Virus record (IMG/VR): IMGVR_UViG_2521172734_000008
Span: 1 to 21,054 of that record
Direction: 5' to 3' (one strand)
Source: a virus
Taxonomy: Duplodnaviria > Heunggongvirae > Uroviricota > Caudoviricetes
DNA length: 21,054 bases
The first letter of the stretch is position 1, and every line of letters begins with the position of its first letter. Positions 12,001 through 18,000 of the stretch are shown one piece after another. The position numbers are program-made.

Positions 12001-15000
12001 GCCGAGTTCATCACCTGGTGTACAAGCGAAGGCATTGGAATCAATGCCGAAGGTAGAATGCAGTTCGCATCCTTTAAGGCTTACCAACAACTTCTCAGCG
12101 AACGCTAATGTGATCGGGGCAATCGAAATGGTTGTCCCATCGTATTTAATAGTTATTTTTTCGCTCATATCACCACCATCACTTCCCATCTTCCGTGTGC
12201 GCTAGGCTTGGGTGTGTATATGGAATGCTCGGATCCAAATGACAAAGAATGGCAACATCCTCCGGAACACCTCGCGTTTTCCACTTTCCAACACCTTGAC
12301 TGCCACGAGGCCTTCCTTTCTTTGGGAACCTGCGACCAATAGCGGCATTGGTTTTAAATTGAATTTTTAATATTTCATAAAGGGTCATTCTTTAGTCTCA
12401 CACCAGATACTTTGTTATCCAACGATGTTAACCACAGGAATCCAAAGTATCAAGAAATTCTGTTACTTTAGTATCAACAACCATGAGAGGAGAAGAAAAA
12501 TGAAGTCTTTAGGTGAACGTCTCATCAACGCACGGCAAAAAGCTGGGTTAACACAAGATGCGTTGGCTAAAAAAGCTGGGATCACCAGAGTTGCAATCAG
12601 TAAAGCCGAGCAAGGCCTTACAAAAAGTTTCAACGGTGACACCCTTTTTAAAGTTGCAGCTGCACTGCGGTGTTCACCGCAGTGGCTTCAGAACGGAGAT
12701 GAAAAAGATAAGCATTGGGAAAATAATGTTAAGAGCTGCCCACAGAGAGACACAGCACACTCTTACCCTGTAATTAACTGGGTTCAGGCAGGATTATTCG
12801 CAACTTCTGGTGATGACTACAACATGTATGATCAGGATAATTGGAGGCATTCTGTAAAATACGCTGGTGAGAGGGGGTTCTGGCTGGAAGTGCACGGAGA
12901 CTCAATGACTTCGCCCGTAGGAATAACATTTCCTGAAGGAATGTCGATCCTTGTCAACCCAGATAAAGAAGTTTTTTCAGGGTGTTACGTCATCGCCAGA
13001 AAAAAATCCACCAATGAAGCAACATTCAAAAAATATATTTCTGACATGGGAAAGGCGTTTCTAAAGCCCCTTAATCCACAATATCCAATCATAGAAATGG
13101 ACAATGATTGCGAAATAGTAGGTGTTGTGGTTGATGCCAGGTGGGATATTTTCTGACCAGACACAAAACACAAAACACAAAAAGAAACCAAAGTATCAAA
13201 AATCACTTGCCACACCTTGATACCTTAGTTACCATAAAACAAAGTTCGTAACTGAGGTATCATCTCATGATCAATAAAGCTACAACTCTTGACTGTCTCG
13301 AAGAACTGAAAAACCTCGGCAGCCTCATTACACTAATAGCAAAAGCAACACCTGATGCTACGCTCTCTAGCGATATAGAGTCATGCGCAGGGCTGGCATG
13401 GGATATGACAAATAGCATATCCAGAAAGCTATCGTCAGCAATGCTTTTACAGAATAAAAATTCTGCAATCAACAACCGTCTTCGCACCCAACGCGAAGCC
13501 TGCGGCTTAACAACCGCCGAACTCGCCAGGCTGCTCGATCTCGATGAAGAAATTATCATCCAGTGGGAGAGCGGAGAGTATGAACCAACTATCAGTATGC
13601 TTATCCCACTGGCAAATATTCTTGGCTGCGATCCGATGTGGCTGTTAACTGGTAAACCAACAGGTGGGGATACTTGCGCATGAAAAACTGTGATGCTTAC
13701 CATATTTGTCTCATTGGTGAATTGCTTGATTTCATACAAAAAAGCACTGCGCGCAATAATAAAAATATAACATATGGTGATCTGGTAATAATTTCAGAGG
13801 ATATAAAGAGCATCGCTCTTAAATTCAAGAGCGACGCGAGTATTGATGACGCTATTTACGCTTATCTTGCGAAAATAATTGACGGATCCAAAATCCAGCC
13901 TCTGGATGAACCTCGTCAGTGAAAAACTCCTTTGATGAAGATGAGAACTGCTTCATAAACTTTACTTTATCTTCAGGTGAAACTACCTGACGAATTAATG
14001 CGGAGATAGCAACTTTGTGCCAAATTAATTCTTTTTTGAGTTCTGAAATCTCTTTTTCGAGTTGCTCTGCGTTAATCATTTATCCTCCATTGAGAGCTGA
14101 ATTGAAAATGGGGACCAACACGCGGCTACGTGTGGTCGTGCGCCGGACACGGATAAGCATCCGGTAACTGATTATCAATCATTGCGGAAACAGTCTCAAT
14201 ATGAAAACACTTCTGAGACTCGCTATATAGCAGGACATATAAGTCAGCTGAGGAAGCCATGAAAAAGTTCGAAAACATAACTGTTCTCCATGTTGATGAC
14301 TTTGATTATACAAACCCGGAACTTCTCCCGGAGGTTGTAAAGGCAATAGATGTTGCCGATATAGTGATTAGAGAAAAGAGAATTGTCAAAAACAGGCTCG
14401 CATGCACTTCAGGAGCAATGACAGAAACAACCTCACAGCAAGATAATTACGAAGGCATTTGTCTGGAGCCTGATTCATTTGCGGTAAATGTTTATCATTT
14501 ATTGCATGCAACACAGGTATTACATATGTCCAGTAATCACGAAACGAAAACACTCGGCAGCGAAATTCTGAGTTTTGCATGTGAGTATACAAAAGCTGCT
14601 GCCGAAAAAGAATTAGCGCAATAACAACAAATATGCCCTGAACGTTTATTGCGGTTTTATCGCCGGGGATTGTTACAACCTTAATCCACAGGAGGCTTTA
14701 TTGTGACTTTTATAAAGAATATGGCATCACACAAGACCGCCTGCCTTATTGCACAATACGGTGAAAATTACATGCATATTGCCTGCTTATTTCTGCGTAA
14801 AGCATACGGGAGATAATAATGCATCAGAAAACAGCAGAACACGAACAAACCAGAGTATTGCTGACCATCAAAAACGGGAAAGTAATATTCATTCGCCATG
14901 TTCATGACGATGAACTTGTAGGAACTCTTTCAACATTCCTGTTTATTGCAGAAAGGGCAGGATATGACGTTATTGCACCAGCAGATGAAGATGAAGATGA

Positions 15001-18000
15001 AGATGAAGATGAAGATGAAGATGAGGAATAAATATCATGCAATACGATGAATTCCAGGCTGAAGCAACAGCCAATGGTATACGAACTGGCAGTATGACGA
15101 TTGATTATCACGACGCCATACGTCGTCTGGATGCCGGAGAATTCGATACTCCTAATGTGCGAGGTTTACGTATCCTTCAGTGTCTGGCGCAAGCCGACGA
15201 AGCAGGATTACTGGGTAAACTTCCGGTTGAGATGAAGGTTGCTCAGTGGCGATGGTTGTATGTGACGACATTCATCAACGAAGAAGAAGACAAGAACGGC
15301 ACAATTGATATCTTGAATGAACACGGAACAACTGAACACGCCGTGGTATATAACGGGATGTATGGGTTTATGACGATATATCCCGGCCCCATTCGATTTG
15401 CCTTACAACAGTATATTGAATGGAATTTAATTCAAAAATACGGCGAAGCTGAAGGAATGGGAAGAGCGCTGTTTCTTTATCAGAAAATGCTCACTACTTC
15501 CCCTGATAAAGGTTTCATTCTTTCAGATATGGGTCGAGAAGGGCTTGAAATCCTTCTGGATGAAATTATTAACGAAATGAATACTCATGGCATGCAATCC
15601 GAAACAGATATTAAGTAAAAGGGACCACATGACCGTTATCGAGCATATCCAGGAAAATCCAGATTGCAGTAGAGAAGATATATCCCTCGCACTTGGAAGA
15701 AGCGCAACTTCTATCAGTAATGAATTATCACGGTTATTGTGGAATGGGTTAATAGTACGAACTGGAGAAAAAAACAAAATGATTCTGTACTGCGTAAACA
15801 ATCTGCCGTTTGGATACAGCAATCCCCTAAGTGTTATGTTCAACCAGTGATAGTGATGTTCCGACAGGAGAGAGCAGAGAAAGGGGAATCAGCATGAAAT
15901 TTTCCAAATTTTCTGAGTTGGTGAATCGTATTTTGTCCAACAACCACAGCCATCGTCGCGATATGGATGTAACGATCGTTGTTCATTCGCCTGGCAGCAT
16001 TGGTTCAACACCCTCAGTTGAAGTTCAGTCAATTCACGCTGGTTTTGATTGGGATTCCGGGAAAGTGCTGATTTTCCCAGCACAGCCACTGACCACTCTA
16101 ACACCAGAACAGATTACTGATATTACTGATAGTGTGCGCAAAGGTCAGTCCTGGCACGCATATCAGGAATACAAGAAGCATAAAGAGCAGTTGGAAAAAT
16201 TATCGATTGAACTTGATGCCGCAAAACAGCGCATTGCAGAGCTGGAGGGTAATTTCACGGCGCTGGCAGCGGAGAATGCGGGGCTAAAGGCGATATGTGA
16301 TGACCGTCGCAGGTTCATCATGAATGGGGTGCAGATGGGTTATATCAAGGTGCCAGCAGCGGAAACAGATCCAGACCTTGAGACAATTCGCATTGCTATA
16401 TCACCACAAAAGCCCATTCCAGCCACCGATGCTTTCCTGGCTGAAGTACGGGCGCAGGGCGTGGAGATGTTTGCGGAGTGTGCATACACGCTTGAACATC
16501 ATGATCACGCAGTAGCCTTCGCCGCTGAGCTTCGCAAAGGAGGCAACCAGTGAGCAAGATTGACTATCAAGAACTGCGCGAGGCGGCGGAACAGGCAACG
16601 CAAGATGAATGGGTAGCATATATTTTGCCGGGTCATAACGGCATTTATCCTGCGCGCACGTCTGAGGGTAGGCATTGCGGATACTTTATTGACTGGCCTG
16701 GCGTCTGTCAGGGGCGGGAGAGCATCAACATGAGCATCAGAACCTACGCAGTGAATTGCAATGACGCATGGCTAAACACCGAAGGTGATGACATCTCCGG
16801 CTCATACGTTAAGTACAAAGACCATCAGGAAGTGGTTGCCGCTCTTGAGGCCAAGTGCGCGGCGCTGGCAGCGGAGAATGCGGGAATAAAGTCTGCAATT
16901 CCAGAATCACGGGATATTGAAGATGACAATGACAATATGGATGACGTATCTCTCGCGGAAGACTTCGGGTTCAATCATGCAATAGAACGGATGAGGAGAC
17001 AGATACCTGAAACGCCAACCACTGATGCTTTCCTGGCTGAAGTCCGGGCGCAGGGGGTGGATGCTGCTATAGAAGCTGCAAAAAATCTGGTGGCCCAAGA
17101 ATATGAGTATAAGGATTTCAAAGCGGCGCAGAGTGATTGCTGTATGTACCCTGGTTCAGACCTGGTAGGGAAGGTTGAAATGACTGAGTGGTTAGTTGAC
17201 TTTGCTGCCCAGCTTCGCAAAGGAGGCAACCAGTGAGCGAAATTAATTACCAGGCACTGCGTGAGGTGGCGGAACGTGCAATTCCAGCAATGGAACGCCT
17301 GTTAATGTTGCCAGCTGATGATGACTTGTTAAGTGAACAGGAACTTAAAGATTACGGTGTGGATATTGATGCGCTCAACGCCTTCAAATTTCTGACCGGA
17401 CCAGAAACCGTGCTGGCACTGCTGGATGAACGGGAAAGAAACCTGCAATACATCAAAAGCCGCGATCAGGAGAACGAGGATATTGCGCTAACGGTAGGGA
17501 AGCTGCGCGTTGAGCTTGAAGCAGAAAAACAGCGGGCAAAAGTTCTATTTATGGAAAATGCTCGGCTTAAGTCAGGCATAGCCGGTCTGATACACCTCGG
17601 TATTCGATATGCAGATGTTGAGGTCATGAAAATTGCTGGAGATGCCCAGCTTTCTACCCCATGCACTGACAGCATCATAAACAGCATTGCAACAGGCATT
17701 CGCATCAAAGGAGAGTGATATGGCGTTAACACACCACGAACTCTGTCAGATTGCGTACAAGTTCCTTAAGCGCAACGGGTTCAAGGTTTGCTTTCATGAC
17801 CGCTTTGTTGCTGTAACCAGTACCGGAGAACAGCCAGATGCTATGGGATTCAGAAATTCAGCATCATGCCTGATAGAGGCGAAGTGTTCTCGTGCTGACT
17901 TGTTGGCAGATAGAAAAAAGCGTTTCCGTAAAAATCCCTCACTTGGCATGGGCGACTGGCGATTCTTTATTAGTGAGCCGGAAATTATTTCAGTTGAGGA

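Follow-up and report, generated by a model that had tools for sequence, protein, structure and literature searches.

A coding microsatellite of variable length in an accessory early gene pair of lambdoid Escherichia coli prophages

Introduction

In-frame coding variable-number tandem repeats (VNTRs) are well known in the open reading frames (ORFs) of Escherichia coli prophages, and such loci are common and are used in multiple-locus VNTR analysis (MLVA) typing of O157:H7. A repeat of this kind occurs in the stretch of DNA analysed here (hereafter the window), positions 1 to 21,054 of the Caudoviricetes record IMGVR_UViG_2521172734_000008, a length of 21,054 nucleotides (nt), where a (GATGAA)6 microsatellite lies in the gene of a 70-amino-acid (aa) protein that ends in an acidic tail and is followed directly by the gene of a 193-aa protein. 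As in the known coding VNTRs, a perfect short tandem repeat within an ORF changes by whole units between close strains and the frame is kept; classical phase-variable contingency loci, in contrast, switch a gene on or off, whereas the repeat in the window only alters the length of the tail.

The nearest named counterparts of the two genes are L07 and L06 of phiP27, a Shiga toxin 2e (Stx2e) phage, and of ASU11, which share with the window the gene order (L10-like helix-turn-helix [HTH], L08, L07, L06), the position between cI and int and the tight stop/start junction. Both genes are annotated 'unknown' in phiP27 and ASU11, so that the match names the genes and not their function. Unlike the window protein, L07 of phiP27 and ASU11 ends in PPAKEQTL with no acidic tail or repeat, and their L06 keeps a C-terminal ...P..P..H motif that the window allele has lost.

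Several known systems bear comparison with the acidic protein and its gene. T7 Ocr and ArdA are folded DNA mimics whose surface carboxylates trace B-DNA, and like the 70-aa protein they are very acidic and encoded by early genes of phages or mobile elements; in the window, however, the charge lies in an apparently disordered homorepeat that is missing from relatives outside one sub-lineage, and the 70-aa protein has no sequence or fold similarity to DNA-mimic or anti-restriction families. The acidic C-terminal tails of SSB, T7 gp2.5 and similar proteins mediate protein-protein contacts or autoinhibition, and the 70-aa protein likewise seems to bear a short disordered acidic tail on a small folded domain, although the SSB and gp2.5 tails are conserved in sequence and length and have a hydrophobic end motif, whereas the window tail is variable, lineage-specific and purely Asp/Glu. 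In phage lambda, ral, sieB, kil, gam, ea22 and ea8.5 occupy the same slot, from the immunity region to xis/int, and are also small, packed, mosaic and dispensable, but L07 and L06 are homologous to none of them. With a probability of roughly 0.6, the locus is an accessory early L07/L06 gene pair in which a slippage-driven acidic tail is tolerated as a by-product, and not a DNA-mimic weapon.

Copy number of the hexamer varies between near-identical prophages

The window is from a lambdoid E. coli prophage, with the 70-aa and 193-aa genes in its early-left accessory operon between cI and int (Table 1). A preliminary description of the window had reported a 70-aa ORF with a (GATGAA)6-encoded acidic tail and, 5 nt after its stop, the ATG of the 193-aa gene, and both are present with the coordinates and sequence given there. 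Tandem Repeats Finder returned a perfect period-6 array of 7.0 copies (14983..15024, 100% match). A three-unit match arose in none of 100 dinucleotide-preserving shuffles, which puts the repeat well outside chance.

A megablast search of 5,426 complete E. coli genomes found the region in 266, with match lengths inside the window's lineage that varied by 6-nt steps. One example per length was fetched and the repeat read directly (loci L001–L007, together with the window). Writing n for the number of GATGAA units, the alleles encode proteins of 60 aa (n = 1; L007), 62 aa (n = 2; L001 and L006), 64 aa (n = 3; L005), 66 aa (n = 4; L004), 68 aa (n = 5; L003), 70 aa (n = 6; window) and 74 aa (n = 8; L002), and the acidic tail ranges from 5 to at least 19 residues across alleles. 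All units were perfect in every allele read, the flanks were near-identical, the terminal GATGAGGAATAA and the ATATC spacer were invariant, and the downstream protein was the identical WP_001199104.1 in six of the fetched genome loci (n = 1–5, 8). The proposed in-frame change of hexamer number is thus seen directly on near-identical homologous prophages. By V13I and R46K, two substitutions in the small protein, at least four haplotypes can be told apart. They differ in n, and two of them share n = 2, which points to several independent length changes or to recombination.

Among approximately 120 complete genomes, n = 1 was the most frequent allele (~60, a count extrapolated from an evenly spaced sample), followed by n = 2 (38), n = 4 (12), n = 5 (4), n = 3 (3) and one genome each with n = 6 and n = 8; many of the n = 1 genomes are clonal sequence type 131 (ST131), and the genomes are not independent events. 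The Stx-phage lineages were also n = 1, judged by match lengths. A collection of 15 billion proteins contained the 60-aa and 62-aa forms on at least 1000 contigs each. Longer forms were scarcer there, with 265 contigs for one 64-aa member, 84 for one 66-aa member and 1 for a 72-aa form, and the exact 70-aa sequence of the window was absent. Overall, the spectrum is strongly skewed to short tails, the commonest allele having only DEDEE and the window's allele being rare, a skew that fits contraction bias or weak selection against long tails.

The prophage with the VNTR is widespread in E. coli (found in ST131, O111 and O55:H7, among others), and a search for related loci in a one-genome-per-species set with the close alignment gave no confirmed relative. 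E. coli O111:H21 strain 15A is 100% identical across the 1051 nt tested, the nearest phage record is PhiR49_2 (97.5% identity), and Stx1/Stx2-converting phages are at 91–93%. The locus is a true coding VNTR, set in a pair of uncharacterised accessory genes, and no paper on it was found in the literature on the repeat motif or VNTR, phiP27 L06/L07, WP_001199104 or the PHROG numbers of the two proteins.

The acidic tail is confined to one L07 sub-lineage

The 70-aa protein is homologous to phiP27 L07 and matches PHROG 340 (unknown function, E = 5.9e-24). Searches of Pfam, NCBIfam, PADLOC and PDB sequences with this protein were empty or spurious, and a protein search repeated with the tail removed returned the same 26 Escherichia proteins. 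Homologues outside the window's sub-lineage include phiP27 L07 together with a sister E. coli lineage (L012–L016; 62–67 aa, core identity 53%) and ASU11 L07 (77 aa, 60%), all of which end in PPAKEQTL, as well as those of the E. coli E2528-C1 prophage (L021; 71 aa, 46%, ending ...APAQEETSDINSNANS, APAQEETSD...), Klebsiella phage P18-100 (84 aa, 51%, ...EEEAGGTDSDTNS), phage 705R4 (59 aa, 37%, ...PPDA) and L010 (58 aa, 31%, ...QSVEVSHA). The acidic tail is absent from every one of these homologues (31–60% core identity), and because all end in non-acidic sequence, the tail is, on this comparison of sequences, a derived feature of one sub-lineage.

The window protein has an isoelectric point (pI) of 4.2 and a net charge of approximately -16, with 15 consecutive acidic residues in the tail. 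Its AlphaFold2 model (predicted local distance difference test [pLDDT] 65) has a beta-hairpin, a third strand and a helix (approximately residues 11–47), followed by residues 48–70 without secondary structure (pLDDT ~55), and the C-terminal acidic tail is predicted to be disordered. The modelled core gave no structural match to solved proteins and no signature of an oligonucleotide/oligosaccharide-binding (OB) fold.

The preliminary description took the acidic tail as a mark of DNA-mimic and anti-restriction proteins and of some antitoxins. A functional tail of this type would be a polyanionic mimic of nucleic acid, drawing a host restriction or defence protein away from DNA, and the microsatellite would be a contingency locus that tunes tail length. 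There are observations that suit this reading: the charge and unbroken acidic run of the protein, a copy number that truly varies with expanded alleles on several haplotypes, and a gene position that, from general knowledge of lambda, is the operon slot of lambdoid restriction-alleviation and anti-RecBCD genes. This is nevertheless improbable. Being absent outside one sub-lineage, the tail cannot be the conserved function of the family; the most frequent alleles have only 5 or 7 acidic residues and frequency drops with length; the predicted disorder is unlike the patterned surface charge of folded mimics such as Ocr and ArdA; and neither the family searches (Pfam, NCBIfam, PADLOC) nor the structural comparison gave a match. 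Acidity as a functional mark is therefore not sustained for this protein.

Two other identities for the small protein were considered and rejected. Similarity to anti-repressors was limited to weak local matches over ~45 C-terminal profile positions (PHROG 4792, E = 1.9e-6; PHROG 2379, E = 1.2e-3), with no match to Pfam ANT, Bro-N or pRha, and kinship to the Rha/Ash proteins of the window itself was limited to a 14-residue local match to one of them (E = 0.015), the second Rha protein giving no match.

The repeat and translation across the gene junction

The preliminary description also placed the Shine-Dalgarno sequence of the 193-aa gene in the tail-coding sequence. A GAGG core within the invariant last unit GATGAGGAA, 10 nt before the ATG, is a plausible candidate from its sequence and position, but it would be a weak and long-spaced site. 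Across synthetic alleles folded in silico (n = 0–12), the minimum free energy of the RNA stays at -40.3 kcal/mol and the accessibility of the Shine-Dalgarno sequence and AUG of the 193-aa gene is nearly constant. Tuning of downstream translation by the repeat through mRNA structure is ruled out in silico by these steady values, and because of them the repeat probably has no role in tuning L06 translation.

Upstream, a conserved 37-codon ORF (orf37) stops 2 nt before the ATG of the 70-aa gene and is an annotated coding sequence in PhiR49_2, with the homologue 'MAFLKNKASYKTACLIAQHGDSYLHIANLYLRKAYGR' in L014, such that three tightly packed genes stand in a string (orf37, 70-aa, 193-aa) and not two. 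It is part of an upstream module: in many E. coli prophages, similarity to the window runs through orf37 to ~14819 (query positions 1–170) and then gives way to a different cassette.

The repeat also leaves its mark on other reading frames. On the opposite strand it opens a 69-aa poly-Ser ORF, rejected as a gene because it is a mechanical by-product of the repeat. In the +2 frame the repeat reads (AUG AAG)n, that is (Met-Lys)n, continuing into ...MRNKYHAIR*, and the database entries P0021, P0025 and P0026 are frameshifted copies that enter this (Met-Lys) frame and end in ...QQMKMRSKYHAIR or ...QQMKMRNNFHAIR.

The L06 family has a confidently predicted fold

The 193-aa protein matches PHROG 1515 (unknown function, E = 3e-90) and is 64% identical to L06 of phiP27/ASU11. 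An exhaustive profile search gave 101 cluster representatives, approximately 45 of which aligned as near-full-length proteins of ~180–230 aa. Searches of Pfam, NCBIfam, PADLOC and PDB sequences with the 193-aa protein gave nothing meaningful, the L06 profile found nothing in PDB, a Pfam scan of 47 distant L06 relatives returned no domain, and Pfam applied to long proteins with weak L06-like stretches (P0147, P0160, P0151 and others) identified no informative fusion. Near-invariant residues of the family are G34, D37, R72, W73, R120, E128, Y148 and G166, together with a final histidine. The AlphaFold2 model of the 193-aa protein (pLDDT 87; predicted template modelling score [pTM] 0.83) consists of three successive beta-meander-plus-helix units, and L06 is thus confidently predicted to adopt an alpha/beta fold without a solved relative.

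The near-invariant ...P..P..H motif at the L06 C-terminus, with histidine as the last residue, gives way in the window allele to ...MQSETDIK, and 190-aa variants also lack the usual C-terminus. The change coincides with a mosaic junction at ~15595, within the last part of the 193-aa gene, beyond which Stx2 phages no longer resemble the window (query position 946), and for this reason recombination seems to have exchanged the 3' end of the window's gene. Databases contain many frameshifted L06 copies.

One L06 relative, P0072 (336 aa), is a fusion of the L06 domain with a 118-aa protein that is encoded directly downstream of the L06 homologue in L009 (3001..3980). There, the 118-aa gene is just upstream of a Zn_Ribbon_Prim/Toprim_3/DUF927 primase gene, a position held in L011 by the L06 homologue itself. 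The P0072 fusion hints, in the Rosetta-stone sense, at a functional partner of L06 other than L07.

L07 and L06 are neighbours in one phage group and separate elsewhere

In E. coli lambdoid phages L07 is directly followed by L06, with a 4-nt ATGA overlap in the phiP27, ASU11 and L012–L016 types and a gap of 5 nt in the window type, and the adjacency is kept despite divergence to 53–60% identity in the small protein and 62–69% in the large one. Cassette boundaries in mosaic comparisons fall at the L07 start (~14819) and the L06 3' end (~15595). A dedicated L07-L06 complex, with the small protein as inhibitor, adaptor or assembly factor, translational coupling setting the stoichiometry and the tail incidental, would account for both observations, and for the occurrence of both families in one operon, although not adjacent, in Klebsiella phage P18-100 (1.7 kb apart) and L010 (0.8 kb apart).

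Outside this group the pairing breaks down. In L008, L009 and L011, small unrelated genes come before the L06 homologues, a ParE-like one in L008 and ones for helical proteins of 60–75 aa in L009 and L011; the homologues are found beside primase or anti-repressor genes, with no L07 homologue in any of these three loci. Conversely, L021 has no L06, and its L07 homologue is coupled to genes for a 119-aa and a ParE-like protein; the L07 homologue of 705R4 stands alone in the nin region. Tight stop/start packing is found throughout the window operon, where neighbouring genes usually overlap by 4 nt or lie a few nt apart, and is not particular to this pair. Both proteins are acidic, the 193-aa protein having a pI of 4.6 and a net charge of approximately -14, which argues against simple electrostatic attraction to the poly-acidic tail. 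The coupled partner of the preliminary description therefore holds as an adjacency conserved in E. coli lambdoid phages but not as a general pairing; a dedicated complex is doubtful, and a specific one is possible but not indicated. From their distribution, L07 and L06 appear to be independently shuffled accessory modules that are neighbours in one phage group.

A type II toxin-antitoxin system, in which the small acidic protein would be the antitoxin and the 193-aa protein the toxin, is very improbable. Its geometry fits, as the first gene is small and is tightly coupled to a larger one behind it, and the ParE-like genes that adjoin L06 or L07 homologues elsewhere imply that genes of the toxin-antitoxin type circulate in the region. 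Neither protein, however, matches any toxin, antitoxin or defence model in Pfam, NCBIfam or PADLOC, and the pairing is not obligate and not conserved outside E. coli. In the L014 assembly the small gene is frameshifted in an A-run while the large gene is intact, a weak counterpoint as it could be a sequencing error, and frameshifted copies of the large gene are common too.

The ParE-like gene (72–74 aa) is directly upstream of the L06 homologue in L008 (708..932, 4-nt overlap) and directly downstream of the L07 homologue in L021 (3717..3935). A recurring set of genes is found in varied order in E. coli and Klebsiella prophages, comprising those for a 119–121-aa protein, L07, the ParE-like protein, a 130–141-aa protein, an SPFH/Band_7 lipoprotein and L06.

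Slippage as a probable source of an apparently tolerated tail

Under the favoured explanation of a tolerated by-product, L07 and L06 would be non-essential early-left accessory genes, with expression presumably driven by the early-left promoter when the phage is induced or infects. The seed GATGAA-GATGAG would have arisen at the 3' end of L07 in one sub-lineage, and replication slippage, the presumed mechanism, would expand and contract it by whole hexamers to give a disordered poly-(Asp-Glu) C-terminal extension of variable length. We infer that this recent, lineage-specific appendage is probably near-neutral or mildly deleterious; it would be tolerated because it hangs off the folded core of the protein and because the fixed last unit keeps the ribosome-binding site and the stop-to-start spacing for the downstream gene.

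Several points weigh against this explanation. Selection, and not drift, could lie behind the expansion in a single lineage and the survival of n = 4 in 12 genomes, not all of them identical, and the allele spectrum is not a clean test of neutrality, with counts inflated by clonal sampling (ST131, outbreak sets). The model of the small protein is of only moderate confidence (pLDDT 65), and disorder of a poly-(Asp-Glu) tract in AlphaFold2 is compatible with a function coupled to binding. As to role, a guess from operon position would make L07 and L06 non-essential host-interaction genes (host takeover or counter-defence), by analogy with lambda ral, kil, gam and the ea genes, which share that slot.

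A more speculative possibility, and a long shot, is that the tail is an evolving, tunable polyanionic decoy. In this sub-lineage, an ordinary L07 protein would be on its way to imitating nucleic acid or charge and so weakening a host DNA-binding defence, with the microsatellite adjusting potency rapidly and heritably, and L06 would separately represent a new class of early effector common to lambdoid phages and P4-like satellites. If true, expansion of a microsatellite would here have given rise to a counter-defence function.

The VNTR could serve as a typing marker, and its natural alleles offer a ready-made set in which to study the effect of a disordered acidic tail on a phage protein. Two uncharacterised families are also delineated, L07 (PHROG 340) and L06 (PHROG 1515), which shuffle in the early-left operons of enterobacterial temperate phages and satellites. 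Genes for host takeover and counter-defence have come from this part of the operon time and again, which makes L07 and L06 sensible targets for functional screening.

Prophage context of the gene pair

The features of the window are listed in Table 1. Cargo in the late region (esterase to porin) is typical of Stx-type phages, with no stx gene inside the window, and is followed by a replication block that contains, in order, DUF968, a DnaB-type helicase, a DnaC-like loader and an O-like initiator. Two Rha/Ash proteins come after the replication genes, and a cro-like gene on the - strand precedes cI. On the + strand after cI are genes for the 138-aa HTH protein, 82-aa and 121-aa proteins, orf37, the 70-aa and 193-aa proteins, a 73-aa winged-helix protein, three Ead/Ea22-like proteins, 182-aa and 243-aa proteins, and then the integrase; an L08-like gene stands between the HTH genes and orf37. 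The window contains no exo, bet or gam genes, and a promoter and terminator scan around the cassette gave no signal above shuffled expectation.

Table 1. Positions of genes, repeats and RNA features in the window.
Feature	Position	Strand	Remarks
NanS-like esterase (DUF1737 + SASA)	1..1854	-	late-region cargo
sRNA STnc100	2077..2267	-	late-region cargo
tRNA-Arg(tct), tRNA-Arg(tcg), tRNA-Met	2345..2590	-	late-region cargo
Porin gene	3356..4498	+	full-length; late-region cargo
DnaC-like gene	7780..8688		
21-nt x2 repeat	8591..8632		perfect
O-like initiator gene	8690..9616	-	
15-nt x3.1 repeat	9220..9266		
Ash/Rha ORF	10025..10879	-	
C4 antisense RNA and isrK	10634..10822	-	Rfam, 82 and 62 bits
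cI	12425..13156	+	
138-aa HTH protein	13267..13683	+	
Shine-Dalgarno of orf37	14690..14695	+	AGGAGG
orf37	14703..14816	+	conserved 37-codon ORF; GTG start
70-aa gene (L07 homologue)	14819..15031	+	ends ...APADEDEDEDEDEDEDEE; (Asp-Glu)7-Glu
Antisense poly-Ser ORF	14902..15111	-	69 aa; rejected as a gene
(GATGAA)6 microsatellite	14984..15019	+	perfect; encodes (Asp-Glu)6; polymorphic part
(Met-Lys)n reading	14984..15050		+2 frame
Imperfect last unit GATGAG, then GAA and TAA stop	15020..15031	+	same in all eight alleles compared
GAGG core	15023..15026	+	plausible Shine-Dalgarno of the 193-aa gene
193-aa gene (L06 homologue)	15037..15618	+	ATG 5 nt after TAA of the 70-aa gene
Winged-helix (MarR-like) gene	15629..15850	+	73 aa; Pfam and PHROG matches
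Three Ead/Ea22-like genes	15831..17718	+	240, 228 and 161 aa
182-aa protein	17687..18235	+	PHROG 9263/631, unknown function
Integrase	19741..	+	

The two tandem repeats of the replication block are candidate origin iterons, the 21-nt x2 array being in the 5' end of the DnaC-like gene, just below the O-like gene, and the 15-nt x3.1 array within the O-like initiator gene itself. The C4 antisense RNA and isrK matches adjoin one another and overlap the 5' part of one of the two Rha/Ash genes, an arrangement that resembles the P1/P7 immI-type antisense control of an anti-repressor, here within a lambdoid prophage. Free-standing helical proteins of ~60 aa (...TIGLAWDLSCKISSWLEK...), encoded upstream of L06 homologues in distant loci (e.g. 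L010 2633..2827), are similar to the N-terminal half of the 138-aa HTH protein (...CAGLAWDMTNSISRKLSS...), a likeness that suggests a small helical domain subject to shuffling. The three Ead/Ea22-like paralogues follow one another with 4-nt mutual overlaps, and the first two share near-identical segments, 'TDAFLAEVRAQGV' and the C-terminal 'AA(E/Q)LRKGGNQ'. Lastly, the 182-aa protein has a weak match to a 'DNA repair protein' PHROG and a D...E-x-K pattern (...QPDAMGF...CLIEAKCSRAD...) that suggests, at the level of sequence motifs, a PD-(D/E)xK nuclease.

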